Positions 947-53,722 are shown, counted from the stretch's first letter. The stretch: DNA of 64,000 nucleotides from a virus (IMGVR_UViG_3300005937_000414:4117-68116), one strand, 5' to 3'. Notes: generated from the letters alone by a model not told the origin. Numbers and translations are program-made.

Positions 947-2280
947 TCGTGGGCAGCCAACTGTCTGTCGGCTTCGATGAGCTATCCGAAGGCGAGTGGA
1001 AAAGGCTGCTCTCCAAGCTGTCGTTTTCACTCGATGGTGACGTGGTTCACTGCTACCGGCGGCTCTTGACAAAGGGCGTTTACAAGCTTCCGCGTGGAGC
1101 GTGGAGCCTGTTGCCCAATCACATCGTCTACCACGACAAGCGCTCGTGCCCACCAGCCCCCGAGTACGATTTCACGCTCAAGCTGGACGACACCGACAAA
1201 GACCCCCGCTTTTCGGGCCAGTCGGATGCCGTAACCGCCATGTTCGAGCACGAGCAAGGGCTGTTGATCCGCCCGCCCGGCACGGGTAAGACGCAGATTG
1301 CGCTGGCCTTCGCTGCCAAGGTGAAAACGAAGACGCTCGTGCTCGTGCATACGGACGATATCCTGCGCCAGTGGGTGAGCGCAGTCGAAGAGGTGATGCC
1401 CGACGCGCCGGTCGGAGTGATCAGACAGCGTCAGTTTTCAATTGGGCACGTCACCATCGCGATGGTGCAGACGCTGAACAAGCGCTACATGCACAAGTCG
1501 CGCTCCTGGTGGCAGCAGTGGGGCTGCGTGATTGCCGACGAGGCGCATCATGTCTCCGCTCCCACCTGGGAGGCCGTGATGAACAGGTGCTACGCCAAGT
1601 ACAGGTTCGGCTTCACGGCCAGCGAGACGCGGGCGGACGGCATGCATCCTACGATGAAATTCATCGTCGGCCCGGTCATCCACAAGATGAAATTCAGTTC
1701 GACCGTAAAGCTCACCGTCGAGCCGACGCAGACCGGCTTTCGCTATCTGTACCGGGGCCGCTGGGACTGGATGCCGCTGCTCGAAGCTCTGACCGCAGAC
1801 GAGGGGCGCAACCGCAAGATAGCGGAGGTGATCGACCGTGAGATCGCGGACGGAAATTCTGTCCTCGTGCTTAGCAGACGAATTGGCCACCTTGGAAACA
1901 TTGCTGGCTTTGTGCAAGCTGATGCTGAGATCCTCACTGGAAAACGTAGCCGAACTGATCGAAAGCGAATCCTTCGAGATTTCAGAGACGGACGGCTTAA
2001 GTGCCTTCTCGCTACGCAGCTTGCAGACGAAGCTCTCGACGTGCCAAGACTCAATCGAGTCGTGCTCACGTTCCCTGGCAAGCACGAGGGCCGGATTATC
2101 CAGCAGATCGGACGGGCGCTGAGAACGCATCCGTCCAAGAGCGATGCCAAGATCTACGACATGGTGGACGAGGTGGGCGTGCTGCGCCACCAGTACAGCC
2201 AGCGAGTGAAAACGTACAACACGAACAGGATCTCTGTCAACAGCCCGATCATGAGGAAGTTGAAATTGTGGCAGCGCTAA
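943..2280 (+). CDS. superfamily 2 (DEAH-box) DNA helicase
   Basis: PPGTGKT Walker A, DEAHH, TAS motif III, QQIGRALR motif VI. Confidence 0.93.
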   Translation: MIVGSQLSVGFDELSEGEWKRLLSKLSFSLDGDVVHCYRRLLTKGVYKLPRGAWSLLPNHIVYHDKRSCPPAPEYDFTLKLDDTDKDPRFSGQSDAVTAMFEHEQGLLIRPPGTGKTQIALAFAAKVKTKTLVLVHTDDILRQWVSAVEEVMPDAPVGVIRQRQFSIGHVTIAMVQTLNKRYMHKSRSWWQQWGCVIADEAHHVSAPTWEAVMNRCYAKYRFGFTASETRADGMHPTMKFIVGPVIHKMKFSSTVKLTVEPTQTGFRYLYRGRWDWMPLLEALTADEGRNRKIAEVIDREIADGNSVLVLSRRIGHLGNIAGFVQADAEILTGKRSRTDRKRILRDFRDGRLKCLLATQLADEALDVPRLNRVVLTFPGKHEGRIIQQIGRALRTHPSKSDAKIYDMVDEVGVLRHQYSQRVKTYNTNRISVNSPIMRKLKLWQR

Positions 2281-2753
2281 AGGATCTTCGTGGCCAGAAA
2301 TTCAGTCGGCTCCTTGTGCTTGAGATGGTGCCGAGAGAAATGTGGCGTGAAAGAAGAGCCGAGTGGCTGTGTGGATGCGACTGCGGAAATCTGATTCATG
2401 TGCGTGGTGACGCATTGCAGTGCGGCGGGACTACAAACTGCGGCTGTTGGCGCAATGTTCGCCATGAGCATACGAGAGGGAGAAAGGCTTCCTCAACCTA
2501 TAGAAGCTGGCGCATGATGATTCAACGATGTGAAAATCCTAGGGTCGAAAATTTTCGGAACTATGGTGGCCGTGGCATAACGGTTTGTAAACGGTGGCAT
2601 AGGTTCGAGAATTTCCTAGCTGACATGGGGGTACGCCCTGAAGGCATGTCAATTGATCGCATCGATAACGATGGTGACTATGAGCCTGGCAACTGTCGCT
2701 GGGCTACTCGTCAGGAACAAGCCCGAAAAGAGGAGACGAAACTGTGGCGATGA
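2268..2753 (+). CDS. HNH-type homing endonuclease
   Basis: GTG start with SD; WLCGCDCG, YGGRGITVCKRW, SIDRIDNDGDYEPGNCRWAT signature. Confidence 0.9.
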   Translation: MAALKDLRGQKFSRLLVLEMVPREMWRERRAEWLCGCDCGNLIHVRGDALQCGGTTNCGCWRNVRHEHTRGRKASSTYRSWRMMIQRCENPRVENFRNYGGRGITVCKRWHRFENFLADMGVRPEGMSIDRIDNDGDYEPGNCRWATRQEQARKEETKLWR

Positions 2754-2947
2754 AAAAGAAAGACGTGAAGGACGTGAAGAAGGCAGGCAAGAAGCGGGAC
2801 GAGATCGCGCTGGAGACGGCGCGTCAACTCCGGGCGCTGGGCGAGCGTGTCACCGTGCTCGAACGTCGCCTGGACGATCTCGTGATCCTCGGAGACGTGA
2901 AGGAGGAGAAGCCGAATGCCAGCCAAAGCCCGGACACCCAGGTCTAA
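2744..2947 (+). CDS. small hypothetical coiled-coil protein
   Basis: 67 aa, SD upstream, coupled to neighbours. Confidence 0.65.
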   Translation: MAMKKKDVKDVKKAGKKRDEIALETARQLRALGERVTVLERRLDDLVILGDVKEEKPNASQSPDTQV

Positions 2948-3431
2948 CGTCGTGAAAACGGAGGCCGACGCTAAGGCGGCCCTCCTGAAGTATCGCGCGA
3001 TCAAGGAAGACATCGCGGTGCGGATGGCAGCGGCCGGGATTCCTGACTTGGAAGAACAGGCCGACGAACTGAGGCAGAAGGCAACCGACTGGGCTGTGAA
3101 AAACGACAAGGACACGATCTCACTGGGCGGCAAGGTTTACGCGCGTCTGCGCCGGGACAAGTATGGCGGCACCTGGGTGGCGACGAGCGACGACCTAACG
3201 AGCGACACGCCGGTCAGCGTGGTTCCGCTACGCACGATCCTCTGGAACAAGTACGCGAAGAAGGGTGACAAGACGATGTTTAATGAAATCTGGCATCGTG
3301 TGTCTAGGCGGGCTGTCGATCCGGACAAGCTCGACCGTGCGGTTCAGGAAGGTGTGCTCACGGCCGACGAGATCTCTCCGGCGTTCTACGAGAAGGACAA
3401 GGCTCCTTTCCTGATCCTGTACGGAGACTGA
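2916..3431 (+). CDS. hypothetical protein (weak resemblance to Mu Gam-like end-binding proteins)
   Basis: Helical N-terminus followed by beta segment DTISLGGKVYARLRR; family call is low confidence. Confidence 0.6.
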   Translation: MPAKARTPRSNVVKTEADAKAALLKYRAIKEDIAVRMAAAGIPDLEEQADELRQKATDWAVKNDKDTISLGGKVYARLRRDKYGGTWVATSDDLTSDTPVSVVPLRTILWNKYAKKGDKTMFNEIWHRVSRRAVDPDKLDRAVQEGVLTADEISPAFYEKDKAPFLILYGD

Positions 3432-3433
3432 AA

Positions 3434-3775
3434 ATGCCGACGAAGAAGCATCGACCCAAGCTCAAGCCGTTGAAGAAGCGCAAGCCCGTCGAGCCGAACG
3501 TGCTGATCACCGGACGCAACAAGGTGCTTCCTCGTGAGATGAACTATTTCAAGCCCGTCCGCTACCGCAACCACCTGACGCTCGCAGAGATGGCTCGTGA
3601 AATTCCATGCGACCCATCCTGGCTCAGGAAGCTGGAGCGGGCGGGCCGCATCCCAATGGCTCAGCGCGTGCAGCGTGGAAAACTTTCGATTCGGCTCTGG
3701 TCGCCGGAGCAGCGCGACGAGATCAAGGAGATCATGGCCAGGCATCAGGTGGGAAGGCCGCCCAAGGAAAGATGA
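3434..3775 (+). CDS. HTH (MerR-like) DNA-binding protein
   Basis: TLAEMAREIPCDPSWLRKLERAGRIP...RLWSPEQ pattern. Confidence 0.7.
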   Translation: MPTKKHRPKLKPLKKRKPVEPNVLITGRNKVLPREMNYFKPVRYRNHLTLAEMAREIPCDPSWLRKLERAGRIPMAQRVQRGKLSIRLWSPEQRDEIKEIMARHQVGRPPKER

Positions 3776-3777
3776 AA

Positions 3778-4128
3778 ATGCCTACGAAGAAACACAGAAT
3801 GGGCGAGGAGAAGACGATGAACGTGTCGGTTGTCGGGTTGAACTACCGCATGACCAGCACGACACAAGAACAGCTACAGGAACACACACCGATGCTCGTG
3901 GAGCTTGTGCGCGAACCTGAAAACAACCACGATGAGAATGCAATTGCCGTTCATCTGACGCGCTGGCGCAAGGACATGATGATTGGCTATCTGCCTCGCG
4001 ATGTGGCTGCGAAGCTTGCCCCACTGCTCGATCACGGGGATGTGGAAATCACCTCCGTCTGGCTGAAAGACGTGGTGCCGGGAGGGTTTGGGGAGCTACT
4101 GATCAGCTTCCGCAGAAAAATTTCCTAA
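3778..4128 (+). CDS. stand-alone HIRAN domain protein
   Basis: VVGLNYR, REPENNHDENAIAV and IGYLPRDVAAKLAPLLD are HIRAN hallmarks. Confidence 0.88.
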   Translation: MPTKKHRMGEEKTMNVSVVGLNYRMTSTTQEQLQEHTPMLVELVREPENNHDENAIAVHLTRWRKDMMIGYLPRDVAAKLAPLLDHGDVEITSVWLKDVVPGGFGELLISFRRKIS

Positions 4129-8743: not shown

Positions 8744-9184
8744 ATGCCGGTGAAAAAAAGAACCGCTCTTAGGCTCAGGTTCGAGCAGGGATTTCAGCGT
8801 GGCGCTCCTGACGAGTGTTGGCCGTGGCTCAAAGCTCGAACGCTCAAGGGCTATGGTCGGATCTATGCCGGACGGCAAAGACTCGCCCATCAAATTTCAT
8901 ATGAGTTGTACGTTGGCTCGATTCCGTTCGGCCTGGAGATCGATCACAAATGCGAAAACAAGTGGTGCGTGAATCCAGCCCATCTGGAAGTGAAAACTAA
9001 AGGCGACCATACGAAGCGTCATGGCCCGCATCGACCGCGTTCTAGCCACTGTAAACGAGGCCATGCGCTGACGCCTGAAAGCCGTATCGAGTGGAGTACG
9101 GGAACCATGTGCCGGATCTGTCACAATGCTGGGAAGCGTGCTCGACGGAAAGGAATTACAGTCGAGGAGGAGCTATGCCTGTAA
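8744..9184 (+). CDS. HNH homing endonuclease with C-terminal Zn module
   Basis: CWPW, IDHKCENKWCVNPAHL, then HCKRGH...CRIC. Confidence 0.9.
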   Translation: MPVKKRTALRLRFEQGFQRGAPDECWPWLKARTLKGYGRIYAGRQRLAHQISYELYVGSIPFGLEIDHKCENKWCVNPAHLEVKTKGDHTKRHGPHRPRSSHCKRGHALTPESRIEWSTGTMCRICHNAGKRARRKGITVEEELCL

Positions 9185-11416: not shown

Positions 11417-11884
11417 ATGCCTCCCACGCGGACAAGAGAGTACATCGAGAGCCGGTTTCAGCGTCAGCCAAACGGGTGCTGGCGCTGGACTGGCGCTATT
11501 AGCAATTTCAGAAACGGTGTCCCACGCTACGGTCATCTTGTGTTTGAGGGAAAGCGTTTTCAAGCGCATCGGCTCATGTGGGAGTTTTACAACGGGTCGA
11601 TCCCGGATGGTCTGTTTGTCCTTCACTCGTGCGACGATACCCTTTGTGGAAACCCTGATCACCTGTTCCTGGGCACACACCAGGACAACATGGACGACAT
11701 GATGAAAAAGGGCCGGAGCGCAGACCAGCGGGGCGAGCGCAACGCTAACGCCAAGCTCACGCGCAAGCAGGTAGTTGAAATTCGGAAGGCCAGAGGATCG
11801 CAAGAAGCCATCGCGCGGCGATTCGGAATCACGCAGTCGATGGTAAGCAAGATCAAACTCCGACAAAACTGGAAGGACTACTGA
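11417..11884 (+). CDS. HNH homing endonuclease with C-terminal HTH
   Basis: CWRW, VLHSCDDTLCGNPDHL, GTHQDN, NAKLT. Confidence 0.9.
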   Translation: MPPTRTREYIESRFQRQPNGCWRWTGAISNFRNGVPRYGHLVFEGKRFQAHRLMWEFYNGSIPDGLFVLHSCDDTLCGNPDHLFLGTHQDNMDDMMKKGRSADQRGERNANAKLTRKQVVEIRKARGSQEAIARRFGITQSMVSKIKLRQNWKDY

Positions 11885-14645: not shown

Positions 14646-15095
14646 ATGAGAATCTCGCCTGCGGCGCGAGCCAGATTTGAGACGAAATTTCATCAGGGTC
14701 GGCACGATCAGTGCTGGCCCTGGTCTGGTTCTGTGAGTCGAAAAAGCCGGTACATGGTTTACGGCGTTTTTCACTACGCAGGCCAGAACCACCCGGCGCA
14801 CCGGATTGCATACAAGCTCTATGTTGGGTCGCCCGGTCGGATGTTGGTTCATCACACCTGTGAAAATCCTCTTTGTGTGAACCCGGCTCACCTGGCGTTG
14901 AAGACTCGACGCAAGCATGCGCTGTTGCACAACCCAAGGGATCGCAAGACGCATTGCCCGATTGGGCATAAGTTCACATCTGAAAACACGTTCCGGCGTG
15001 CGGACGGCAAGCGCGAGTGCCGAATCTGTCGCAACGAACGTGCCCGGCAGTACAGGTTGCATCAAAAGGAAAATGCTGCTACAGTACGTCCGTAA
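14646..15095 (+). CDS. HNH homing endonuclease with C-terminal Zn module
   Basis: CWPW, VHHTCENPLCVNPAHL, HCPIGH...CRIC. Confidence 0.9.
   Translation: MRISPAARARFETKFHQGRHDQCWPWSGSVSRKSRYMVYGVFHYAGQNHPAHRIAYKLYVGSPGRMLVHHTCENPLCVNPAHLALKTRRKHALLHNPRDRKTHCPIGHKFTSENTFRRADGKRECRICRNERARQYRLHQKENAATVRP
15057..15085 (+). promoter_or_regulatory. promoter embedded in the HNH 3' end
   Basis: TTGCAT-N17-TACAGT preceded by TGC. Confidence 0.55.
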
Positions 15096-15122: not shown

Positions 15123-15482
15123 ATGACGAAGGTAAGCAAGATCACTCGCGCGGACTTGGACAAGGCCATCCTGCTACGGGAGGCGGTCACGGATTACATT
15201 CTGGCCGATGCTCTCGACGGTGTGTATCGGGAGCAGGAATGGGGCCAGATGCATGCTGCGTTTTCAACGACGGACACGGCCGCGCTGACCAAGCTTGCGG
15301 CCGATCTCAAGCGCAATCTCGACTTCGTGGAGCCGGGTACGGTTCTCAAGAGCCTGTCCCGCGCGAAGTTCCGGGCGCTCGACACGTCCGGCCTGACCAG
15401 GGTCATTCGCGAGACGCCCGGCACCAGGCTGTACGCTCGCACGCTGCTGGAAGCGAACATCGAGGAAACGCCCTTCGGCTAG
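15123..15482 (+). CDS. hypothetical protein
   Basis: 119 aa, SD GAAAGGA. Confidence 0.75.
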   Translation: MTKVSKITRADLDKAILLREAVTDYILADALDGVYREQEWGQMHAAFSTTDTAALTKLAADLKRNLDFVEPGTVLKSLSRAKFRALDTSGLTRVIRETPGTRLYARTLLEANIEETPFG

Positions 15483-15503
15483 ATCCTCCGAGATACCGTT
15501 TTC

Positions 15504-15530
15504 AAGGCCCGGCGCAAGTCGGGCCTTTTT
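15504..15530 (+). terminator. intrinsic terminator
   Basis: AGGCCCGGC-GCAA-GTCGGGCCT then TTTT. Confidence 0.75.
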
Positions 15531-15547: not shown

Positions 15548-15967
15548 ATGGATGTTCTGGAAGCTCGCATAGCGGAGAAGATCCGCGTAGAGGGGGATTG
15601 CTGGCTCTGGCAGGGTTACACCCTCGGACGCGGTGAGTACGGCGGGATTTCAGTTGACGGTACCTACAAGTACGTTCATCGGGTCATGTATGAAATTCTT
15701 ATTGGGCCGATCCCGGATGGCTTGACTCTCGATCATTTGTGCCGTCAGACCCTGTGCGCAAACCCTTTTCATTGCGAGCCGGTTACGCTGCGAGAGAACA
15801 TCTTGCGGGGAGACAGTCCGACAGCCGTTAACGCTCGAAAGTCGCACTGCATCCACGGCCACCCGCTTTCAGGTGAAAACCTGTACACCGCGCCGGACGG
15901 GCATCGTTACTGCCGCACCTGCCGCAGGCGTCTCAGGCGAGAGTCTTATTGGCGGAACGGCACCTAG
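15548..15967 (+). CDS. HNH homing endonuclease with C-terminal Zn module
   Basis: CWLW, LDHLCRQTLCANPFHCEPVT, HCIHGH...CRTC; TAGAAT 7 nt upstream suggests a leaderless mRNA. Confidence 0.88.
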   Translation: MDVLEARIAEKIRVEGDCWLWQGYTLGRGEYGGISVDGTYKYVHRVMYEILIGPIPDGLTLDHLCRQTLCANPFHCEPVTLRENILRGDSPTAVNARKSHCIHGHPLSGENLYTAPDGHRYCRTCRRRLRRESYWRNGT

Positions 15968-16009
15968 AGCGAGACGCCGTTTTCATAGCCCCGCGCAACA
16001 TACCGCCCC

Positions 16010-17010: not shown

Positions 17011-17356
17011 CGAAGTTACGAAACCCGTTCCGCCCGAAACGTCAGCTTGCGGTGATCGGGCATATCGGGAAAGTCTGCGAGCAACTGTCGCAAGTCGTCA
17101 CAAGTGAAATTGCGAGCGATGCGCAGTCGATTGCGACTCAAGGGAATTGAAGACCAGCGACAACCGCAGTCCTCGGTTCCAGTCCAGAGTTCGTCTCTGA
17201 AAACCTGCCTAGCGACCGTCCAAAGCTCGGACGGGTTTTCAATCCAAACCGTGCCCAGGTCGGCATCGATTGGGTTACTCGATCCTTCGTCGATGATTCT
17301 GTATTCCATGCTTGATCCTTTCAGGTATCCGGCTAGGATCCTGATCCCTCGCGGGA
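16935..17356. repeat. inverted repeat A enclosing the 97-aa gene
   Basis: TCCCGCGAGGGATC (16935-16948) and CTAGCCGG (16958-16965) are exact reverse complements of 17343-17356 and 17329-17336. Confidence 0.85.
17016..17309 (-). CDS. hypothetical protein
   Basis: 97 aa; SD context GAAAGGATCAAGCATG identical to that of the next gene upstream. Confidence 0.75.
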   Translation of the reverse strand: MEYRIIDEGSSNPIDADLGTVWIENPSELWTVARQVFRDELWTGTEDCGCRWSSIPLSRNRLRIARNFTCDDLRQLLADFPDMPDHRKLTFRAERVS

Positions 17357-17369: not shown

Positions 17370-18315
17370 TGAAAACGAGACTTGATTCAGGGGACTGCCC
17401 TAGGCTTTGTCGGGAGTTAGCTTCCCTTGATTTCGTCCAGTACCGCTTTCAGTTTCGCGGTCATTTCGTCCTCAGGGAAGCTACTAGGTGAGTAGGGACA
17501 ATCGAGATGAATCGTCCCCGTCTCACGTTCGTATTTCACGTTCCACGATCCCCCGTTTCTGCGACCCATGCCGCTCGTGATGGTCATGCCGACTTGATCG
17601 GCATGCATGCACATTGCGACGAACGTCAGACCGCGAAAGCTCGCGGGGGAAACCATTGGACTCCACGCGGTGAAATCCGATCTTTCGTTTTCTTTCTTGA
17701 CGCGAATCACGGTCGTTCGCGGCGACGAAGCCGCTTCCTGAACCATGCCGCTATCTGCCTTGTGCCGGATCGTAATCTGGCAGTCGATCCCGTGCAATTC
17801 AAGCGCAGTGACCGCCCGATTCAGCCAAGTGAAATACTGGCCCAGGATGCGGTGGCCCGTTGTGCAGACCATGCCGATTTCAGCGTCAATCGCCAGTCCA
17901 GGGATTGACTCGGTTTTCGTCCAGTCCAGCATGTATTCATCCTCGCCGTCAAGCGCGAGATCGAGCAGCATTTCATCGCCTTCCTCTGCGATGACCATCC
18001 GGGATTCCTCCCGGATCGGCGGCAGGAAAGTGTCGAAACCTTTCAGTTCCGAGGACTGGTATCCATGCTGTAGCCAGTCCTGCAGTTCACCCTTTGAGAA
18101 GCCTGCCCATTGGGCACGGCTGTAATCGGGGTTTACACACTTTTTCGCTTTCGTCGCATTGGCAGCCCGCTTGAATCCCTTGCGGGATCCCGCTTGCAAA
18201 CTGAGGACTCGTTCCCTCAGGTCTTCCCATTCAATCGTTACGCGGTTTTCATTCTTTTCCATGCTTGATCCTTTCGGTGCCCTTAGGCAATCCCCTGGAT
18301 CAAGCCTCGTTTTCA
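17370..18315. repeat. inverted repeat B enclosing the 281-aa gene
   Basis: 17370-17404 versus reverse complement of 18281-18315: 30/35 identical. Confidence 0.88.
17417..18262 (-). CDS. probable AAA+ ATPase partner (degenerate VWA/CobT-like)
   Basis: Start MEKNEN after GAAAGGA; EEGDEMLLDLALDGEDEYMLDW resembles CobT/VWA-partner segments; adjacent to a MoxR-type ATPase. Confidence 0.6.
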   Translation of the reverse strand: MEKNENRVTIEWEDLRERVLSLQAGSRKGFKRAANATKAKKCVNPDYSRAQWAGFSKGELQDWLQHGYQSSELKGFDTFLPPIREESRMVIAEEGDEMLLDLALDGEDEYMLDWTKTESIPGLAIDAEIGMVCTTGHRILGQYFTWLNRAVTALELHGIDCQITIRHKADSGMVQEAASSPRTTVIRVKKENERSDFTAWSPMVSPASFRGLTFVAMCMHADQVGMTITSGMGRRNGGSWNVKYERETGTIHLDCPYSPSSFPEDEMTAKLKAVLDEIKGS

Positions 18316-22426: not shown

Positions 22427-22596
22427 TCTCCGCTCAAACGGTCGGTGCTCAGAAGGCCCACCGCAATTTCATCCAGTTCTACGGTTACGAAGAAGGCAAT
22501 CGAATTTTCTTGCAGAAGGCGGACGAGCAGGGCACAGGCTCCACTCAGAGGAAGCGCGTCAACTCCGTTTACAAGCACGGGGCCAAGCTGAAGTGA
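22390..22596 (+). CDS. small protein paralogous to 21805-22002
   Basis: FYGYEEGNRIFLQKA...RKRVNSVYKHG aligns with RYGAKKGTSVFYAKA...RKANSVYSKG; SD AGGAG. Confidence 0.65.
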   Translation: MQRPKTPGLPFLISAQTVGAQKAHRNFIQFYGYEEGNRIFLQKADEQGTGSTQRKRVNSVYKHGAKLK

Positions 22597-31636: not shown

Positions 31637-32089
31637 ATGCTCTCACGAGACGACTGTAAGTATCTGGCCGGTTTGTTCGACGGCGAGGGAAGTGTCCATG
31701 CCGGAATCCACGTTTCAGCTAGCGGCCATTTTTCATTGGGTATGCGGCTGTCGATCACGAATACAAACCCGACGGTGCTGTATTGGCTCCAAAACGAAGT
31801 TGGAGGAAACGTTCATGTCCAAGAAGCAGGCAAGGACGGAAGGAAAATGCACGTATACCGCTGGGTGATCGGTGGAAAGGACAGCGAGAAGTTCGCTCGA
31901 AAGATACTTCCGTACTGTCGAATGAAATCTGGACAGTTGGTGCCCTACATCGAACTGCGTGGGCGGATCTATCCAGGTAGCCAGAAACCTTTGCGGGAGT
32001 CTCCTGCTTCAAGGGCCGAATGGAAAATTCGGCAAAAGCTGGTCGATAAGATCACCAGCGACCCCTACAGAAAAAGAATGGGGGTGTAA
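31637..32089 (+). CDS. single-motif LAGLIDADG endonuclease
   Basis: YLAGLFDGEGSV; LSITNT; ILPYCRMK. Confidence 0.88.
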   Translation: MLSRDDCKYLAGLFDGEGSVHAGIHVSASGHFSLGMRLSITNTNPTVLYWLQNEVGGNVHVQEAGKDGRKMHVYRWVIGGKDSEKFARKILPYCRMKSGQLVPYIELRGRIYPGSQKPLRESPASRAEWKIRQKLVDKITSDPYRKRMGV

Positions 32090-33246: not shown

Positions 33247-33252
33247 GTGAAA

Positions 33253-33861
33253 ATGAGCGAAACCGAGGCAACCCCGAAGAAGAAGTCCACCAGCCGGGCC
33301 GAAGCGGGCCTGGTCGAGGAGGGCTTCGAGGCTCAGCCGCAGGACGAGGCAATCGCGGCGGGCGAGCACATCGACTTCGACGCCCTGGAGGAAGCGGACG
33401 GCCTGGTCGAGACGGCTCAGTCCTCGCTGAAAGTCAGCGGCATGAGTCAGGAGGAGCAGAGCATGGACATGACACCCGCCGTCGTCGGCCCTCCGGGCTA
33501 CGGCTCGCCGGATCCGGTCACCGCTGCCGGGCGGCTGCTGCCGCTCGACCAGCATCCGTTCAACCCCAATGCCCTGCCGGACGACCATCCGGCCAGGATC
33601 GATGAAAACTACGGCGTCGGCTATCAGGCCGATCTGTCGGGCGACGAGATCGGCACGCAGTTCCCCGGCGCTCCCGGACGCAGCGATCTGGAGACGGATT
33701 TGCTGGGCACGGGCGAGAGCGAGGCCGAGGCGACCGATTACGGTGCGCAGACGAAGGACGAGCTTCTGGCCGAGGCGCAGACGCGTGGCCTCGATGTCAC
33801 GTCCGCGAACACGAAGGCCGAGATCATCACGGCGCTCCAGGAGGACGACGCCTCCTCCTAG
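33253..33861 (+). CDS. acidic head protein with C-terminal HeH/Rho-N-like motif
   Basis: TKDELLAEAQTRGLDVTSANTKAEIITAL. Confidence 0.7.
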   Translation: MSETEATPKKKSTSRAEAGLVEEGFEAQPQDEAIAAGEHIDFDALEEADGLVETAQSSLKVSGMSQEEQSMDMTPAVVGPPGYGSPDPVTAAGRLLPLDQHPFNPNALPDDHPARIDENYGVGYQADLSGDEIGTQFPGAPGRSDLETDLLGTGESEAEATDYGAQTKDELLAEAQTRGLDVTSANTKAEIITALQEDDASS

Positions 33862-33912
33862 CACGACTGTTTCTGAAAACGCCTCTCTGATGTGCAAGAA
33901 GGGAGTTGGGAG

Positions 33913-34590
33913 ATGGGCCAGTTGATCCGTGATCACGACGCCGCATATCTCGCCGGGCATCTCGACGGCGACGGTTCGATCACCGATAACGGCAGCGGTT
34001 ACGTTCGTGTGCAGTGGATCAGCGCCCATAAGACGACAATAAATGAAATTCGCCGGATGCTCAGGCGAGAGGGTGTTACTGCCTACGTGAAAAATGTCGG
34101 CGGTAGCAAGAACGTGCTCTGGTGCGTCTGTATCTACCGTCAGGATGATTGCAAATTCACACTGGAACGGATTGCTCCGTATCTTGTTGTGAAATCCGAT
34201 CAAGCCTGGACGGTGCTGGGGGCATTTGGGTCACGGCTCAAGCATTACCACACTCCTCTCGGTTGGGACTATCTGGCCGGGTTGCTTGACACGGATGGTC
34301 ATGTGACCCAACAGCAGAGATGGAAAAACGGCGGTCTGACGTATCGGGTCGCGTGGACGCAGAAGTACAAGCGAGGGTTTTCAGAGATCCAGGCGTTTCT
34401 CTCAGAGGCAGGAATTGCGTCGAAGCCAATACTCCTTCACTCGGGAGTGTGGCAACTGAGGGTACTTCGTCAGGGTGAAATTCTGATTCTCCTTGAAGAG
34501 ATGCTTCCGTACCTGATCACGAAGGCAGCTAAGGCAAAGAAAACAATCTCTGATGTGCAAGAAAGGTGGGAAATATGTGTGGACAGTTGA
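33913..34590 (+). CDS. double-motif LAGLIDADG endonuclease
   Basis: YLAGHLDGDGSI and YLAGLLDTDGHV. Confidence 0.9.
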   Translation: MGQLIRDHDAAYLAGHLDGDGSITDNGSGYVRVQWISAHKTTINEIRRMLRREGVTAYVKNVGGSKNVLWCVCIYRQDDCKFTLERIAPYLVVKSDQAWTVLGAFGSRLKHYHTPLGWDYLAGLLDTDGHVTQQQRWKNGGLTYRVAWTQKYKRGFSEIQAFLSEAGIASKPILLHSGVWQLRVLRQGEILILLEEMLPYLITKAAKAKKTISDVQERWEICVDS

Positions 34591-34946
34591 AGCACGACGG
34601 CAGGGCCACACAGGGCGGCGTGACCGCCCCGGCGGCCCAGGCCATTGTCAAGGGCGACCTGTACCGGATCAACGCCTGGAACGGGATCGCTCTGAAAACC
34701 ATCGGGGCGTCGGACACACTGCGCACGATGGACATGGAAATCGCTCCGGATCGGATCTGGTACGTCAAGCTCCCGGCCGCGCTCAGCCCGGCCGTGGGCG
34801 ATCCGCTGTACTGGACGGCGGGTGCCGGGTTCAAGCGGGGCGATACCGATCTGTCCGCAACCGTCGCAGGCTCACCTGCCTGCAAGGTCGAAGAGGTGAA
34901 GGATGCGAACGGCTACGCCGCCGTGCGCGTTCTCAACCTCGCGTAA
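34575..34946 (+). CDS. capsid decoration/cement protein (DUF2190-like)
   Basis: 123 aa, small Gly/Ala-rich beta protein directly before the MCP. Confidence 0.65.
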   Translation: MCGQLKHDGRATQGGVTAPAAQAIVKGDLYRINAWNGIALKTIGASDTLRTMDMEIAPDRIWYVKLPAALSPAVGDPLYWTAGAGFKRGDTDLSATVAGSPACKVEEVKDANGYAAVRVLNLA

Positions 34947-34968
34947 AGGCGAAGGGAGGGTAATTTCA

Positions 34969-36159
34969 GTGACGAAGACAGCACAGGGTGTCCTGATTCC
35001 CGACGCGCTGACGATGGACAAGATCACCCGCTTCGACAAGAACGGGCGCATGTTCATCGGGCACGACGGCCGCTTCGGCCCGCTCACACCGGGAGCGTAC
35101 CTGGCGACGGACGGACATTTTCAAGACCTGAACCACAGGCGCTGGCAGAACGGCAGCCTCGTCGGTGAAATCGCGACGGTGCAACTCGTCTCCGCGTCCG
35201 AGATGGAAGGGCGGCTCGTGCCGCAGTTCTTCGAGGACATGGTGACAATCGATCTGCTGGAGCCGGTCAGCGAGATGATCACCACGTCCGACGGGGCGAT
35301 GGATCTGCTCGACAAGGTGCGCATCGACATCGACCAGGGGCTGGCCGAGGTTCCCGTCCTGTACACGCCGCTCTACGAGCGGGTCAACGGCCCGTTCCCC
35401 GGCGGCTCCGTGCAGATCGGCGGCGATGTCGTGTTCGACGCGAACGTCGTTTTCATGGAGAAGTTCGAAGCAGGCGAGATCATCTTCGGTACGCTGGCCA
35501 AGGCCGGAGTCCCCAGCTTCGTCCCCATCTCGACGTACGCGGCGGGCTTCGAGTGGACGGAGGACATGATCGAGTACGACCGCTCCTACGAGATCTCGAT
35601 GAATTCGAGGGCGTTCGGCCGGGCGTACAACTATCTGCTCAACCACCTCCACCTCTCACCGATCATCGCCTACACGTACGCCGCCGCCAACAAGACGGCG
35701 GCTGCATCGGGCCAAGGCTCGCTGCAGGCGAACACGCTCGTGACTTTTCAGAACGCGTACAAGCACGCCGCCCAGGCTCTGCCGCAGCGGGTGCCGTCGT
35801 GGATCCTCGCCAACGAGGCCGACCGTTTTCAGATCGAGGACGCGCTGCTCACGCCCGTCATCGACGCGAACGGCAACCCTTTGCGGCGTGTGCCGGTCAC
35901 GGGCATCATCTACTACAACGGCGCGACGGTCACGAACGGCGTCAAGTCGTACGTCTATCCGGGTGTCACGGCGGGCAAGTGCTATTTCATCATGCCGGAT
36001 CTGCGCATGAAGGAGCTTGTCCACCACGACCTCCGCATCGACATCGGCCCGGCGGACATCTCGCGGTTGATCGAGGGCCAGCAGGTTGCGCGTGCACGGC
36101 GTGGCCTCTATCTCGACATCCCGAACAGCGTCGAAGAAGTCACGCTACCCACGAGTTGA
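34969..36159 (+). CDS. major capsid protein
   Basis: 396 aa from GTG after GGGAGG; size, position and strongly biased codon use. Confidence 0.8.
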   Translation: MTKTAQGVLIPDALTMDKITRFDKNGRMFIGHDGRFGPLTPGAYLATDGHFQDLNHRRWQNGSLVGEIATVQLVSASEMEGRLVPQFFEDMVTIDLLEPVSEMITTSDGAMDLLDKVRIDIDQGLAEVPVLYTPLYERVNGPFPGGSVQIGGDVVFDANVVFMEKFEAGEIIFGTLAKAGVPSFVPISTYAAGFEWTEDMIEYDRSYEISMNSRAFGRAYNYLLNHLHLSPIIAYTYAAANKTAAASGQGSLQANTLVTFQNAYKHAAQALPQRVPSWILANEADRFQIEDALLTPVIDANGNPLRRVPVTGIIYYNGATVTNGVKSYVYPGVTAGKCYFIMPDLRMKELVHHDLRIDIGPADISRLIEGQQVARARRGLYLDIPNSVEEVTLPTS

Positions 36160-36205
36160 GGAAGTGAGCTTGCCTACCCAGGTCGAAAACTGTAGCCTTT
36201 CGGCC

Positions 36206-36805
36206 ATGAGCGAAGTGATCAGACATACGCTCTCACAGGTGGATCCTGCGGCCCGTACTGCCGTTTGTTCGGTGTGCGGGCCGATCAGGATTCGCTCGCG
36301 TGGGATGAGCAGACATGGAAAACCTCAATGGCGTTGCGCAGAGGCGCAAAACTTCTATATGCGGGAGGTAGCGTCCAAATCTGAAAAAGGAAAACAGTGG
36401 CAAAGGGAAAGCTCGGCTCGCTACAGGAGCAAGAATCCCGAAAAGGTCAAGACTGAAGTCAAGAAGTGGAAAAAGGAAAATCCCGAGAGAGTAAAAGCGG
36501 CTAAGGCTCGCTGGGATCGTGAAAATCCCGAACGGGCCTGGCAACTCAACGCCAAAGCGAGAGCAATGGAATTTGATGCTTTCGTGGAGGATGTTGACAG
36601 GCAAGAGGTTCTCAGGCGGTACGGCTTCCGGTGCGGAATCTGTGGGAAGCCTTTCAAGAAAGGACGGTTTGAAATCGACCACATCGTCCCATACACGCTC
36701 GGCGGGAAGCACTCGTACGAGAACACTCAACCGGCACACACCTCCTGCAACCGCAAGAAGCGTAACAAGCTGGTTGCTCAGGAAGTCACGCTGCCCACGT
36801 CGTGA
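36206..36805 (+). CDS. HNH homing endonuclease
   Basis: CGICGK...EIDHIVPYTLGGKHSYENTQPAHTSCNRKK. Confidence 0.9.
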   Translation: MSEVIRHTLSQVDPAARTAVCSVCGPIRIRSRGMSRHGKPQWRCAEAQNFYMREVASKSEKGKQWQRESSARYRSKNPEKVKTEVKKWKKENPERVKAAKARWDRENPERAWQLNAKARAMEFDAFVEDVDRQEVLRRYGFRCGICGKPFKKGRFEIDHIVPYTLGGKHSYENTQPAHTSCNRKKRNKLVAQEVTLPTS

Positions 36806-37048
36806 GCAGTGGCAGGCACACCGGCTGGAGGGGGGCTGCCGCCCGACAGCCCCTCTCTGAGCCTCTAGGACGCCTCAGGAGCTTTCAGAGGCATCCCAAC
36901 CCTGTCCAGACGATCTCAGGCCGTCAGAACGGCTCCTGTGGCCTCCCAGCGCATGCTCTGGTAGGGTCGCCCGGACAGTCGAGGGTCGAAGTGGAACCGA
37001 ATGCACATGGTTTTCAATCCGAATCGATTGCCCTTATAGGAGGGTGAG

Positions 37049-37771
37049 ATGGGAGTACCTGTCAGGCTGGATTTCACACCTCCGACTCTCCCCGAAGTGG
37101 CCTCTCTGCACATCGAGGAGGCTTCCGACCAGCAGGGGACTTTTTCCGAGATCGAGGTAGTGACGGAAGTAGGCTCCTACCCGAATTACATTTCGTACTA
37201 CACGACGCAGAACGCAACTGCCGTGGATTATTGGTTCCGCATCCGCTGGAAGACATCCGAGGGGGTTTTCACAGACTACTCCCCGGCCATTCAGGGAGGC
37301 ACCAAGCTGCTCGTGCAGGAGATCGTGGACAGGGTGATCCTGCGCAACCCAGCTTTGAACGAGGTGATCGTCACGCAGGAGGCCGTTGCCGTTGTCTCTG
37401 AAAACTTTCCCGGCGAAGACCCACTCACGATCCCTGTTGAAAATGCGACGTACGTGCAGATCCGGGGTATGACGAACATGACGCTCGCCCGCTCGCTGAT
37501 CGCGACGACGCTGGCGTCGGGTGGCTCCGTCTCGAAATTCACTGCGGGCCTCGTTTCTCTGCAGGCAGGCACGACAGCGGCCGACCCGACCAAGGCAATC
37601 GACGCGCTGATCAAGTCGGCAAACGACGATCTGGGCACGGGAGCGAGCTACGTGCTGCTCATGTCCACGGTCGATCCGACGGGCGCGAGCTACGGTTACT
37701 GCTGCGGGCCTGGCGGCTCGTTGCACGGAGTCGATCTGACCCGCACCGTCGCGATGGTGGATTACGCGTAA
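37049..37771 (+). CDS. head-tail adaptor (probable)
   Basis: First gene after the MCP unit; 240 aa; positional call. Confidence 0.55.
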   Translation: MGVPVRLDFTPPTLPEVASLHIEEASDQQGTFSEIEVVTEVGSYPNYISYYTTQNATAVDYWFRIRWKTSEGVFTDYSPAIQGGTKLLVQEIVDRVILRNPALNEVIVTQEAVAVVSENFPGEDPLTIPVENATYVQIRGMTNMTLARSLIATTLASGGSVSKFTAGLVSLQAGTTAADPTKAIDALIKSANDDLGTGASYVLLMSTVDPTGASYGYCCGPGGSLHGVDLTRTVAMVDYA

Positions 37772-38607
37772 TGTCAACGCTCGCCCAGATGAACGCGCTT
37801 TTTCAATCGAACGCGTCGAGTGCACGCTACTACCGCTCGTCGGGCCGCTCTCTGCCCTGTCCTTGCAGAACACCCGAGGGCTTCAGGGATCCGGAGCTTC
37901 ACCTCTCGTTCGCTCAGTACGGGGTCGAGTCGTTCTCTGTTTCATCCGGCGTAATTCCAGCGGGCACGCAGCTTCGTTACACGCTCGTCGCAATCGGCAG
38001 CAACGGAGTGGCTATGTCACCGGCCGTCGTCTACCCGCCGCTCTACTCGGACGAGATCACGGATGCCCAGAGTTTTCAGGTTTCGCTCGCTTTCAACTGG
38101 CCGCCCGGTGAGGCGTTTGTGGGCGGTAACTGGGCCGTGTATCGCTCTGAAAACGGGGACAGCCCCACTTTGCTGGGCACACTCGACCATCCGTCCACGA
38201 CGTTCGTGGACAACTACCCGCTTGGCTCGGGTAGCGTGGGCCTGATCGAGCCTGTGCTGTGCAACGAGGCTGGTGAAATTCCGCAGACTCCCATCGACAT
38301 GATCGTCAAGGCGTTTGTGCAGCCGATTCAGAGCACGAGGGCCACGCGTCTCTCGACGGAGTACCTGCAGGAGGTGTTCGGCACCATCGAGGCGGACGAT
38401 CACCTGGGTATCTTTCCCGTGACGTGGAGCGGCAACCGGCTCGATTTCAGGAACTGGGGCCAGCACGGCGAGGATTTCATCGAGTACGACGGTCAGCGCT
38501 TCTTCGTTATCAACGCGAACATGATCCCCGATCCCGGAAACGGCGACCCGGAACATCACTGGGAGACGGGCCTCAGACTGATTCGAGAGGATGGTCTTGT
38601 GTCATGA
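37771..38607 (+). CDS. head closure/neck protein with FN3-like insert (probable)
   Basis: CPC...C frame interrupted by a ~120 aa beta insert; C-terminal DFIEYDGQRFFV typical of head-closure proteins. Confidence 0.55.
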   Translation: MSTLAQMNALFQSNASSARYYRSSGRSLPCPCRTPEGFRDPELHLSFAQYGVESFSVSSGVIPAGTQLRYTLVAIGSNGVAMSPAVVYPPLYSDEITDAQSFQVSLAFNWPPGEAFVGGNWAVYRSENGDSPTLLGTLDHPSTTFVDNYPLGSGSVGLIEPVLCNEAGEIPQTPIDMIVKAFVQPIQSTRATRLSTEYLQEVFGTIEADDHLGIFPVTWSGNRLDFRNWGQHGEDFIEYDGQRFFVINANMIPDPGNGDPEHHWETGLRLIREDGLVS

Positions 38608-39062
38608 CGCCGATGGACTGGGCATATGCGGCGGCCTTTTTTGACGGCGAGGGATGCGTGACTGTCAACATCGCTGAAAGGAAAACGGCTACTCAAAGCT
38701 GTGTGGTTGGAGCGAGAGCGATGAATCTTTCGCTTCGCGTGGCGAACAACGATCCGACTGTGCCTCGCTGGTTCGAGAAGAACATCGGTGGCACGGTTCG
38801 TTTTCATTCAGCAACGCGCGACTCGTACGTTTGGATCGTTCAGGGCGACCTGGCGCGAGCAGTGGCAGTGAAACTGATGAAATACACGAAGATGAAGAAG
38901 CGGCAGCTTCGTCTCTTCGTTCAACTCATGGATACGCGACAGCCCAACCTGGGTCGTGGGTATACGACGCCTGATTCAGTGTGGAGGCAGCGTGAGAAGC
39001 TGATTTCACAACTGAGGGCTGACCCATATCGGCGGCGCAGAGGTGAGTCGGTGATTTCATGA
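38604..39062 (+). CDS. single-motif LAGLIDADG endonuclease
   Basis: YAAAFFDGEGCV; LRVANND; MKYTKMK. Confidence 0.88.
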   Translation: MTPMDWAYAAAFFDGEGCVTVNIAERKTATQSCVVGARAMNLSLRVANNDPTVPRWFEKNIGGTVRFHSATRDSYVWIVQGDLARAVAVKLMKYTKMKKRQLRLFVQLMDTRQPNLGRGYTTPDSVWRQREKLISQLRADPYRRRRGESVIS

Positions 39063-39106
39063 AGCTAGGACTCAGGATGATTCGCGAGGACGGGCTGGTG
39101 AGCTAA

Positions 39107-39892
39107 GTGGCCAGGCTCGTTCACTGGGACACGCCCAAAGGCATGGGCGGGCTTTTTCAGATCACGCCCCAGACGATCAACGGCATCGAGGCGTACATCC
39201 GCTGGGCGCAGTACGAGGTGCCACGCAACCTGCCCGTCTACATGGACAGGCTGGCGCATTTCATGGCCTTGAAAAACCAGGGATTCGCCCGCAGGATGGC
39301 ATTCGGCCCACTCGACCCGGACGGCAGGCGCACGGAGCTTGCCTGGCGCACACCGGAGCAAGGGATCAGGAGAATTTCACAGAACTACTACCTGGGCTGG
39401 AAGGTCAGGAAACTGCGTCAGGGCCACTACCGGCTGTACAACGCGTCCAAGGAGGCGTATTTCATCGAGTTCGGGATCTCCGAGGTCGGCTTCGGTGAAA
39501 ATCGTCATGTGCCCAAGGGCAGGATTCGCCGTCCCGTCAGGAAGCTGTCGCTGATCAAGACGATTCGCTTCATGGCGACGACGCAGGCGTACCATCGCAT
39601 CTGGACGGACATTTTCAGGTCGCGGCACACGTCTGGTGGCTTTTCACAAAAAGTACAGTCCCCGGCCGGAGGGCATCTGCGCTGGGAGGACATCTCGGAG
39701 CACGAGGCTGGTTCGGTCATGCGTGGCAATCTCCGCGCCGGGCGCTCGCTGACGCACGGCCTGCGCAACGAGGGCGGGCAGATTCAGCAGCGCAGGCCCA
39801 ATGCAGGCGGCGGCACGTACAGAGGCCCGTATCTGCGCGGCAGGGGCAGTGTGCTGCCGCCGACGGGAAGGAGGCGACCGCCGTGGCGGTGA
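39107..39892 (+). CDS. neck/tail-completion protein (HK97 gp10-like position)
   Basis: AYFIEFG motif, basic C-terminus. Confidence 0.55.
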   Translation: MARLVHWDTPKGMGGLFQITPQTINGIEAYIRWAQYEVPRNLPVYMDRLAHFMALKNQGFARRMAFGPLDPDGRRTELAWRTPEQGIRRISQNYYLGWKVRKLRQGHYRLYNASKEAYFIEFGISEVGFGENRHVPKGRIRRPVRKLSLIKTIRFMATTQAYHRIWTDIFRSRHTSGGFSQKVQSPAGGHLRWEDISEHEAGSVMRGNLRAGRSLTHGLRNEGGQIQQRRPNAGGGTYRGPYLRGRGSVLPPTGRRRPPWR

Positions 39893-40557
39893 AATACGAC
39901 CCTGAAAGCTGGCTGGAGTCGGCCGTCCGCGTGCTCAAGGAGTACCTGGAGCAGGAATTTCACCAGTCGCTCAGCAACGGCGGCGAGTTCGTGGGCGAGG
40001 ACGCGTACGAGATCGTTGCCGAGTTCCCAGGCTCGGATCTGGACACGCGCAGGATGCCGATGCACAGGACAGTCGTCCATTTCGAGGTGGACGACATCCA
40101 GAGCGGTGTGGTCGGCATCGGGGACAACATTTTCATTTCGACGTACGACGAGACGGCACAAGAGGTCACAGGGCGCACGGGTGAGGTTCATGTTCTGAAC
40201 ATCGACGTGGGCATCTGGGCCAGTGATGCGTCCGGCGGTGCCACGGCCCGGCTCAGGGCCAAGCAGATCCTCCAGAACAGCCTGGGCGGTGCAAGAGGGA
40301 TCACCAGGCTCAGGAATTTCAGCGATGGTGGTGACGGGGCACTGGAGATCACCGGCTTCTCGGGCGGCAGGTTCATCATGGACAGGATCAACGACATGCA
40401 AGTTTTCAGGATGATCGAGTCCACGCTCATGATCCGCGTGTTCAGCCGTGTGCCTCTGGACGCGAGTGACAGCGGCCCGGCTATCGAGGAGTTCGAGATC
40501 GACCCGTTCATCCAGACCTATGATGAAAACGGACAACTGGTGGAAGTAAAGGACTGA
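39883..40557 (+). CDS. tail terminator (probable)
   Basis: Acidic 224-aa protein immediately before the sheath gene. Confidence 0.55.
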   Translation: MAVKYDPESWLESAVRVLKEYLEQEFHQSLSNGGEFVGEDAYEIVAEFPGSDLDTRRMPMHRTVVHFEVDDIQSGVVGIGDNIFISTYDETAQEVTGRTGEVHVLNIDVGIWASDASGGATARLRAKQILQNSLGGARGITRLRNFSDGGDGALEITGFSGGRFIMDRINDMQVFRMIESTLMIRVFSRVPLDASDSGPAIEEFEIDPFIQTYDENGQLVEVKD

Positions 40558-52278: not shown

Positions 52279-52290
52279 GAGGTGAGGTAG

Positions 52291-52818
52291 TTGGGTACGA
52301 GATTCAACATCGTAGATTGGAGGTGGCTGGCTGCTTTCACCGACGCAGAGGGTTCAATCGTTCTTGCCAAGAATTTCGAGAAGCGGCCATCCCAGATCAA
52401 CGTCAGGTGGTATCAGAGTGAAAATCAGATCGAGTTGCTCTGGGCCATCAAGGACTTCCTGGACGAGAAAGGAATCTCGAACTACTGGTATGCCAACGAG
52501 AGCAATACCAATTTCAGGGCCACTGCGTTGGTTTGGACGCTTGGCGTTTCTGGAGTTGCGTCCTGTCAGGTAGTCCTCAAAGGAATCCGTCCATTCCTGA
52601 TTTCAGAGAAGAAGATCGAACGGGCTGACAAGGCACTCGAAGTTTTCAACGGGTACAAGGGCCGCGTGTATACGAAAGCCTCGAAGTGCAGGAAAGGTCA
52701 TGACATGACGAAGCCAAAGAACATCTACACACGGCCGTCAGGTGCGCGTCAGTGCCGAGTCTGTATGCAAGAGGTCGAGCGCAACCGCAAAAGGGATCGT
52801 CGGAAGGTGGCGATCTGA
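52291..52818 (+). CDS. LAGLIDADG endonuclease fused to a C-terminal Zn module
   Basis: WLAAFTDAEGSI; C-terminal CRKGH...CRVC; TTG start after GGAGGTGAGG. Confidence 0.85.
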   Translation: MGTRFNIVDWRWLAAFTDAEGSIVLAKNFEKRPSQINVRWYQSENQIELLWAIKDFLDEKGISNYWYANESNTNFRATALVWTLGVSGVASCQVVLKGIRPFLISEKKIERADKALEVFNGYKGRVYTKASKCRKGHDMTKPKNIYTRPSGARQCRVCMQEVERNRKRDRRKVAI

Positions 52819-52819
52819 A

Positions 52820-53722
52820 ATGGGGTCGAGATTCAAGATCTTCGAGAGCACCGGCCTCGCCCCCAACGGGCGTCTCTATGCCGGAGATCTCAACCAGATG
52901 CAGGACAGCTACGCCGATCAGACGAACCTGTCTCAGGAAGTCGGCGTAGCCGCGTTGACGATTGGCGAGACTGCACTGAAATTGCTGCGATACGGAACCG
53001 GTGAGGCGCGGTTGTCCGGGTTGCTGCGCATCGACGGCATCCTGCGCGGCCTGGGAGGGCTGTACGCGGGTGCGTTCACGACGGCGCAGCGCGATGCCAT
53101 CGCGGCAGGCTCGCGCCCGTACGGACTGATCATCCTCAACACGACGACGAATCAGATCGAGTGGAACAAGGGCACGGACGCCACGCCGAACTGGCAGCCC
53201 ATCGCTCCGGTTTTAGGCTCTGGGTCTATTACCGGCTCGATGCTGGCCCCGAACAGCGTGGACTCCTCGAAGATCGTAGACGGCACTGTGACGTACGCAG
53301 ACCTGGATGGAGGGTTGAAGCCGACTGTGAGCGCGGCGGCCGGTGCAGAGGCTCTCAGAGCCTTGGGGACGGGTGCCAGCACAGCCTGCGCCGGGAACGA
53401 CATCCGCCTGACAGGTATCGCGGGCGTGAGCACGCCGACGGCCAGCTACACGCTTGTGATCTCGGACGCAGGCGGCATGGTGCGCATGAACGTCGCCAGC
53501 GCGAACACGCTGACCGTTCCGGCCAATGCGACGGTCGGCTTCCCCGTCGGGACGATTGTCAACGTCGTGCAGTACGGAGCGGGCCAGACGACGATTGCCG
53601 CCGCCGGAGGAGTCACGCTGCGCGTGATCCCCGGCTTGAAATTGGTCGGCCAGTACGCGATGGCGTCGCTCGTCAAGGTCGCGACGGACGAGTGGGTCGT
53701 CTCGGGGAACCTGTCGGCATGA
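52820..53722 (+). CDS. tail fibre protein
   Basis: After the baseplate wedge genes; GSITGSMLA...VDSSKI repeat and a C-terminal fibre module (SYTLV...QYGAGQTTI). Confidence 0.75.
   Translation: MGSRFKIFESTGLAPNGRLYAGDLNQMQDSYADQTNLSQEVGVAALTIGETALKLLRYGTGEARLSGLLRIDGILRGLGGLYAGAFTTAQRDAIAAGSRPYGLIILNTTTNQIEWNKGTDATPNWQPIAPVLGSGSITGSMLAPNSVDSSKIVDGTVTYADLDGGLKPTVSAAAGAEALRALGTGASTACAGNDIRLTGIAGVSTPTASYTLVISDAGGMVRMNVASANTLTVPANATVGFPVGTIVNVVQYGAGQTTIAAAGGVTLRVIPGLKLVGQYAMASLVKVATDEWVVSGNLSA

Follow-up and report, generated by a model that had tools for sequence, protein, structure and literature searches.

How can a free-standing homing-endonuclease gene (HEG) enter the coding sequence of a packed phage operon and leave both the invaded gene and its neighbour intact? 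The question is raised by a stretch of 64,000 nucleotides (nt), hereafter called the window, which comprises bases 4117-68116 of the 68,116-base virus record IMGVR_UViG_3300005937_000414. The record is rated complete and represents an uncultured soil phage; the window has ~60% G+C and carries almost every gene on its + strand, including all of the nuclease genes and duplicated gene ends located below. Its region 2253-52843 holds 11 intact free-standing nuclease genes, HEG1 to HEG11: seven of the HNH type, three of the LAGLIDADG type, and one in which a zinc finger accompanies a LAGLIDADG-like motif. Sequence comparison indicates that seven of these elements very probably consist of a free-standing HEG together with a short spare host-gene end, inserted 1 to 12 codons inside the end of the invaded gene.

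The whole window was subjected to a strand-specific self-comparison in which repeats lying 250-1300 nt apart were kept. Direct repeats that exactly bracket five nucleases were among the top matches, and comparable matches were given only by tail-fibre paralogs and a few internal repeats. In a junction test, 140 nt around the start of each gene were aligned with 140 nt around its end. HEG5, HEG8, HEG9, HEG10, and HEG11 gave scores of 17-19; a score of at least 17 was reached in ~0.25% of 3000 random trials with the same spacing and by 2 of 37 control genes, one of which was a tail-fibre paralog. The score of HEG1 was 13 (p ~0.04), and HEG2, HEG3, HEG4, HEG6, and HEG7 stayed at background level in this DNA test. 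HEG1 and HEG7 owe their place among the duplications to the comparison with nuclease-free alleles. Repeats and nuclease-free alleles together supported seven sites (nuclease open reading frames (ORFs) starting at 2268, 15548, 31637, 33913, 36170, 38604, and 52291), in line with a preliminary description of this DNA, according to which at least 7 of the 11 endonucleases, from both the HNH and the LAGLIDADG families, are flanked by two versions of a host-gene end. Both families indeed occur among the seven. That description had spoken of a duplicated gene terminus. This is correct for four sites, where the 3' end of the upstream gene is replaced (helicase, g15123, major capsid, and g37771), whereas at 31637, 33913, and 52291 the replaced piece is the beginning of the downstream gene, from its ribosome site through the start codon to the first codons. 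It had also spoken of two copies, which holds generally but not at the 36130-36181 and 15462-15517 sites, where there are three. Repeat lengths vary from ~15 to 44 nt, and the paired copies are 60-85% identical in DNA, with nearly the same peptides.

As the preliminary description had proposed as a check, nuclease-free alleles were sought in related phages. They were provided by up to 39 related metagenomic viral contigs for HEG7 to HEG10 (numbered with the prefix L; capsid proteins 57-92% identical to that of the window) and by L041, L074/L075, and L076/L077 for the other sites. The nuclease-free allele matched the far-side copy and its context at all seven sites, identifying this copy as the native one. 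The nucleases are thus present or absent at fixed sites among otherwise collinear relatives; the four in the structural region, HEG7 to HEG10, were carried by none of the 39 related loci. The native start or end stays beyond the nuclease and matches relatives lacking the ORF, which is the arrangement of the gene hybrids formed by mobile ORFs (mORFs) in fungal mitochondria. As had also been claimed, the native copy was found either orphaned or absorbed into the nuclease ORF: it persists as a stranded stub or contributes a few codons to the beginning or end of the nuclease ORF, and HEG8 and HEG11 start from the native ribosome site and start codon of their targets. In the 3' cases, the host gene now continues past its body into the supplied copy; in the 5' cases, both its ribosome site and its start codon are supplied. 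Stop/start overlaps maintain the translational coupling of the operon.

Among the 3' cases, the helicase gene has a supplied functional end (2263-2280) that reads KLWQR-stop and contains an extra Gln found in no close homologue. The native end (2739-2753) provides the last four codons and the stop of the HEG1 ORF, KLWR-stop, as in the closest helicases. This native end also carries the ribosome site of the following gene, overlaps that gene's ATG with its stop, and is near-identical to the empty allele in L076, with downstream context, overlapping ATG, and ribosome site included.

At g15123, a relic, copy B (15486-15517), and a terminator hairpin come after the functional end (copy A, 15462-15482). 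The orphaned native end, copy C (15968-15998), lies behind HEG5 and consists of SETPFS-stop plus 12 nt of the 3'-untranslated region (3'UTR). The closest homologue of g15123, P0016 (80% identity), ends with ISETPFS and so agrees with the orphan at 15968-15988; for the working end, EETPFG, together with its 3'UTR and terminator hairpin, the resemblance is to the more distant L074 lineage. Copies B and C are identical at 24 of 29 positions. In L074 itself, the 3'UTR of the nuclease-free g15123 allele contains a short relic (1861-1880) resembling the alternative end (PFS), which may be the footprint of a cassette later lost.

Three copies were likewise found at the major capsid gene. The native end, copy C (36779-36805), forms the in-frame tail of HEG9; it differs at 1 of 24 nt from the end of the 92%-identical relative L001, and the terminator region downstream is also the same. 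Copy B (36155-36181), which lies in the reading frame of the nuclease, closely matches the working capsid end of the locus L073 and was therefore deduced to be a decayed older supplied end. The functional end, copy A (36130-36159), is a later, native-like tandem addition of 25 nt, and the A/B junction makes the final Ser codon and the stop, which span the boundary of both copies. Deliberate recoding of this Ser codon (AGT) was considered and rejected, since the codon is formed where two tandem copies, 25 nt apart, meet.

The supplied 3' end of g37771 (38569-38607) comprises 12 codons, and its stop overlaps the ATG of HEG10. The orphaned native end (39059-39106, the copy itself being 39068-39106) is a 15-codon mini-ORF, coupled on one side to the stop of HEG10 and directly adjoining the GTG with which g39107 starts. 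The g37771 stop overlaps or abuts the start of the next gene in every empty allele, exactly as in the orphan; the copy attached to the gene body is followed by the nuclease and not by the next gene. G+C at third codon positions (GC3) is 5/12 in the supplied copy and 10/12 in the native one. A GC3-rich native copy facing a poorer supplied copy had been put forward as a common property. It was confirmed for this pair (38569/39068) and for that at 31605/32089, but it was absent elsewhere.

In the 5' cases, it is the beginning of the downstream gene that exists twice. The empty alleles of g32089 read MDD[IV]ITEVFE right after the stop of g31228, and this matches the orphaned native start at 31605-31631, an eight-codon stub ending in a stop (GC3 8/8). 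The supplied start (32089-32116) reads MKNDEAIVE and has an identity of 0.69 to L001, compared with 0.88 for the whole gene. At the head-decoration gene, the native leader, ribosome site, and first four codons (MGQL; 33884-33925) are now the head of HEG8, and the supplied leader and start (34547-34590, ATG at 34575, MCGQLK) lie inside the 3' end of HEG8. All of the ~25 empty alleles (L001, L002, and others) start with MGQLK behind a common leader, so that the supplied start of the window has an extra Cys codon; its leader resembles that of L010. In the third case, the native ribosome site, start, and first codons (GTRF) of a tail-fibre-like gene (52279-52307) have become the head of HEG11, and g52820 starts from a supplied ribosome site and start (52803-52836; MGSRFK). 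The empty allele L041 has MGTRFK directly after the upstream stop and the ribosome site.

The two copies differ in a characteristic way. Codon alignment of the pairs gave 20 synonymous versus 4 nonsynonymous codon differences, which bears out the claim that the supplied copies use different synonymous codons. For the pairs of the window, these four amino-acid-changing codons compare with 15.2 expected under random placement of the changes (P<5e-5). The clearest pair is that of g37771, with seven synonymous and one nonsynonymous differences in 12 codons, including a switch between the six-fold Ser codons. Identity to L001 is ~0.87 overall and dips only inside the short replaced pieces; therefore, no long co-converted tract is visible.

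This pattern recurs in other genomes. Homologous nucleases in three other metagenomes (L073, L078, and L079) showed the same layout at the same two target sites, supporting the earlier suggestion of a general strategy. L073 carries an HNH nuclease (P0002, 49% identical to its homologue HEG9) at the same capsid site. Its working capsid end and the copy in the nuclease tail both read TLPTSGA, yet six of the seven codons differ, all synonymously (no amino-acid change observed versus 4.3 expected, P<5e-5). MGQL, MGRL, or LGQR is the beginning of each of the four homologues nearest to HEG8 (33-51% identity). In L078, which has a 51%-identical nuclease, the decoration gene restarts with MCGQLK and thus has the same extra Cys as the window. 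In L079, a 43%-GC phage with a 35%-identical nuclease, this layout recurs; the supplied start is another one but again has an extra codon after the start codon. Such recurrence of a nuclease family and its supplied end at one site in other phages is indirect evidence that the nuclease may mobilise the element.

Where does the different spelling come from? Natural alleles already differ at most synonymous positions of conserved ends; L001 and L004, for example, differ at seven of nine capsid-end codons. Affinity of the supplied copies to foreign lineages was seen at two sites, namely g15123 (L074 lineage) and the decoration-gene leader (L010), the others being too short to place. Because natural alleles differ likewise and two supplied copies resemble other lineages, a foreign allele was favoured over purpose-made recoding. 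The spelling of the spare ends most likely goes back to an allele of foreign origin that the element carries along, and the label "recoded" in the preliminary description may overstate the case. If the nuclease recognises the join, an exact carried copy would rebuild the target at the new junction, so some divergence would be required.

By analogy with the mobile ORFs of fungal mitochondria, we propose that the nuclease would cut the uninterrupted native sequence in a co-infecting nuclease-free phage, and that repair would then copy the nuclease and the spare end in between the gene body and its native end. The different spelling of the spare copy would prevent the new junction from recreating the target site, and the divergence of the copies would also stop the two repeats from recombining the element out.

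Several points weigh against this proposal. The HEG1 duplication is short (~11-19 nt) and, taken alone, marginal (p ~0.04); that of HEG7 is at background level in DNA, so that comparison with nuclease-free relatives is what points to it. Copy A of the capsid end is identical to native copy C at 17 of 18 core positions, and immunity based on spelling is therefore not obviously valid at this site. The three-copy sites (36130-36181 with 36779, and 15462-15517 with 15968) need additional, guessed-at events. Nuclease activity and cutting at the duplicated segments are presumed from the fungal analogy. Finally, the genome is a metagenome assembly, and the only sequencing run containing it, a rhizosphere metagenome assembled at ~10x depth, is probably its own source.

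A possible but rather doubtful view is that the duplications mainly preserve translation in a packed operon, with immunity to re-cutting being secondary or absent. It is compatible with the insertion of a nuclease plus a spare end: because the last codons of a gene hold the ribosome site of the next, both functions survive an insertion at this point only if the junction is doubled. To the right of HEG1, the native helicase end includes the ribosome site of the following gene and overlaps its ATG, which fits this logic, as do the mini-ORF at 39059-39106, coupled to the stop of HEG10 and the start of g39107, and the use of native ribosome sites and starts by HEG8 and HEG11. No duplication accompanies HEG4, whose site is a true intergenic spacer. 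The capsid end, on the other hand, is followed by a terminator region and no coupled gene, yet it is duplicated in both the window and L073. Thus, translational coupling is not the whole explanation, and coupling alone would leave the strong divergence in spelling with a kept peptide unexplained.

We tentatively consider, with similar reserve, a broader view of the spare ends as selected parts that keep the host protein, break the element's own target, prevent its loss through the repeats, and carry the translation signals of the next gene. The three-copy sites of the capsid gene and g15123 and the nuclease-free scars (the L074 3'UTR and a repeat at 3429/3773) would then record, like fossils, successive rounds of invasion, loss, and re-invasion. 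If this were true, conserved phage gene ends would be shaped by a running contest with homing endonucleases. The 3429/3773 repeat belongs to two consecutive genes, g3434 (helix-turn-helix, excisionase-like) and g3778 (HIRAN-like), which have in common a 22-nt leader and the start MPTKKHR (3429-3450 and 3773-3794). It also occurs in the nuclease-free relative L077 and is therefore old; an earlier cassette that has since lost its nuclease could have left it as a scar.

Transposon-like target-site duplications, identical at first and drifted later, would likewise bracket an insert with direct repeats. We regard this origin as highly improbable, since the repeats are neither of fixed length nor identical (~15 to 44 nt, 60-85% identity) and since mostly synonymous differences are not expected from the drift of an unused copy (P<5e-5). 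The native copies are almost unchanged relative to the empty alleles, the supplied copies resemble alleles of other lineages, and the same extra Cys codon is found in a second phage.

There is hardly any room for the idea that these are ordinary intergenic free-standing endonucleases whose flanks resemble each other by chance or through a ribosome-site and start consensus. Five genes (HEG2, HEG3, HEG4, HEG6, and HEG7) were at background in the DNA junction test, and starts with "MP" are common in the genome. Five other junctions reached at least 17, as compared with 0.25% of random positions, and the empty alleles put the insertion points inside coding sequence at seven sites. Chance is thus contradicted at these seven and possible for the genes at 8744 and 11417.

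Many phage homing endonucleases are borne by introns or inteins, and the far-side orphan might be taken for a second exon. This is scarcely credible here: no Rfam family, group I and II introns included, was found at gathering threshold anywhere in the window, the supplied end of each host gene is in frame and brings an ordinary stop or start, and the nucleases are separate ORFs with their own stops, not in-frame inteins. With such host-gene termini, there is no need for splicing or for ribosomes to hop. An assembly artefact from mixed strains, conceivable for a metagenome assembly of ~10x depth, is next to excluded by an independent Logan assembly of the rhizosphere run that reproduces 31200-39900 with no differences and no alternative joints, by the same layout in three unrelated samples, and by junctions with exact stop/start overlaps and in-frame fusions.

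A recognised endonuclease domain (Pfam HNH_3, HNH, LAGLIDADG_3, or LAGLIDADG_1; PHROG-374) was found in 10 of the 11 nuclease genes; HEG11 was assigned at motif level only. GC3 is 0.51-0.67 in the nucleases versus 0.75-0.85 in neighbouring host genes. HEG1 (2268-2753; start codon uncertain) is of the HNH/AP2 type and matches PHROG-374, "HNH endonuclease", at 8.6e-59. Pfam HNH_3 is present in HEG2 (8744-9184), HEG3 (11417-11884), HEG4 (14646-15095), HEG5 (15548-15967), which is paralogous to the other HNH_3 genes, and HEG6 (22593-23045). HEG9 (36170-36805) starts with TTG at 36170 or ATG at 36206 and has a C-terminal Pfam HNH domain (PF01844, 8e-14). HEG7 (31637-32089), whose stop overlaps the g32089 ATG, is a single-motif LAGLIDADG protein (Pfam LAGLIDADG_3); HEG10 (38604-39062), its paralog (E 1e-19), also has a single motif and a weak match to Pfam LAGLIDADG_1. 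HEG8 (33913-34590) is a double-motif LAGLIDADG protein (Pfam LAGLIDADG_3, 1.6e-15). HEG11 (52291-52818), with a TTG start, combines the LAGLIDADG-like motif with a zinc finger that is common with the HNH_3 genes; its single-sequence structure prediction had a mean predicted local distance difference test score (pLDDT) of 39, too poor to confirm the fold. The C-terminal zinc-finger module of HEG11 (52681-52770) is shared with HEG6 (22923-23005; BLASTP E 2e-6) and was also seen in the C-terminal parts of 8744-9184, 14646-15095, and 15548-15967, which suggests shuffling of a putative DNA-binding module between two nuclease families.

The four remaining nucleases gave weak or negative results. HEG2 starts with MPVK, as does the gene downstream of it (ATG 9175), and HEG3 shows weak echoes of its flanking junction; relatives were sought for both regions and none were found. 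Both duplications are only suggestive. HEG4 has no duplication. It is a plain intergenic insertion whose 3' end runs into a leader conserved in L074 and L075. No convincing duplication was seen for HEG6. A 10-nt stretch at its 3' end echoes the end of g22327, a similarity left as unproven; the paralogous small genes at 21805 and 22327 were rejected as a duplication because they are conserved as paralogs in nuclease-free relatives. The only nuclease homologues in the related loci are HNH_3 genes at L060 1765-2130 and L063 2-247, situated directly upstream of the large terminase gene, which is the position of HEG6 in the window.

A near-identity DNA search with 22 kb of the window against a deposited phage collection gave no match. 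Neither nuclease-free joints nor variants were seen in the contigs of the rhizosphere run (~10x). When viral contigs were scanned for patterns, no close relatives of HEG9, HEG10, or g13700 were found, and a scan for the helicase gave one distant locus only; a g13700 homologue was not found in five complete relatives. Many relatives have a large insert that separates the capsid gene from the g37049 homologue. It occupies 7267-13884 in L001, where it is one 2205-residue ORF, and gaps of 4-9 kb occur at this place in L007, L009, L013, L015, L016, L018, L024, L033, L034, and L035; the insert is missing from the window, L002, L006, and L030. The last 2.3 kb of the window (61658-64000) have 70-74% G+C and a long minus-strand ORF, a composition unlike that of the remaining genome. 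Three successive tail-fibre-like paralogs at 25999-28771 (39% identity over 239 residues) have a conserved start region in common, and collagen-like Gly-X-Y runs are encoded at 26449-26622 and 56161-56331. An exact 19-nt repeat comprising a ribosome site and ATG (17304-17322 and 18257-18275) heads two consecutive minus-strand genes, for a 97-residue protein and a DUF7192 protein, that adjoin an AAA_5 ATPase gene; the trio are also neighbours in another contig.

Insertion of a nuclease plus a spare end would give phage homing endonucleases a route into protein-coding sequence that needs neither intron nor intein, merely a few spare codons brought along, and it would widen the accessible sites to almost any conserved gene end. 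It would also explain oddities of annotation, such as short orphan ORFs next to nucleases, nuclease termini that copy a neighbour, and odd extra residues at gene ends. The native copy beside each nuclease is its predicted recognition sequence, which provides seven new candidate pairs of enzyme and target. Very short tracts of foreign DNA at gene ends are thereby marked as a source of mosaicism. Full-text literature searches found no description of the spare-gene-end layout in a phage, and it is not described in a paper on nucleases at recombination boundaries of the phage ICP1.

Among known phage systems, the Seg and Mob proteins of T4-like phages are free-standing endonucleases that spread by intronless homing via double-strand-break repair in mixed infections; they are inserted between genes and have distant cleavage sites, and no flanking duplications are mentioned for them (PMC2988022). 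Like the nucleases of the window, they lie beside or between conserved genes and are present or absent among relatives; unlike them, they are not inserted inside coding sequence. In the MobA/gene 60 cassette of T4-like phages (bioRxiv 10.1101/2022.08.31.505936), also reportedly described by Bonocora et al. in 2011, an endonuclease travels with extra sequence sparing the product of the interrupted gene. There, ribosomes bypass a 50-nt gap, whereas the supplied ends of the window have ordinary stops and starts and involve no bypass. Sethuraman et al. reportedly described in 2009 that LAGLIDADG insertions in fungal rps3 duplicate the C terminus they displace. These are in-frame insertions near a gene end, as in the window, but they are organellar, reside inside an intron-encoded gene, and affect the 3' end only.

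The closest counterparts are the mORF gene hybrids of fungal mitochondria, known from Allomyces macrogynus atp6, Glomus atp6, atp9, cox2, and nad3, Rhizopus atp9, and Mortierella cox2, in which an inserted foreign C-terminal sequence in phase with the gene is followed by an endonuclease ORF and by the displaced native C-terminal sequence (PMC3630166). The two copies of Glomus atp6 have 63.5% DNA identity and are close in protein, and a horizontal origin of the inserted copy was proposed (PMC3630166). The preliminary description had drawn this analogy, and accurately so, the layout being the same: the window likewise has an inserted end copy in phase with the gene (seven sites), a retained native end, and copies that are diverged in DNA and conserved in protein. 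In both systems, a LAGLIDADG or other endonuclease ORF may lie near the 3' end of a gene, sometimes in phase with the native piece. The host in the present case is a phage genome and not an organelle, and the replaced pieces comprise 4-12 codons as opposed to tens of codons in the fungi. The fungal hybrids described there are C-terminal replacements only (PMC3630166), whereas three of the seven sites of the window are 5'-end cases in which the nuclease takes the native start. HNH-type nucleases also take part in the window, and the stop/start overlaps of a prokaryotic operon are preserved there.

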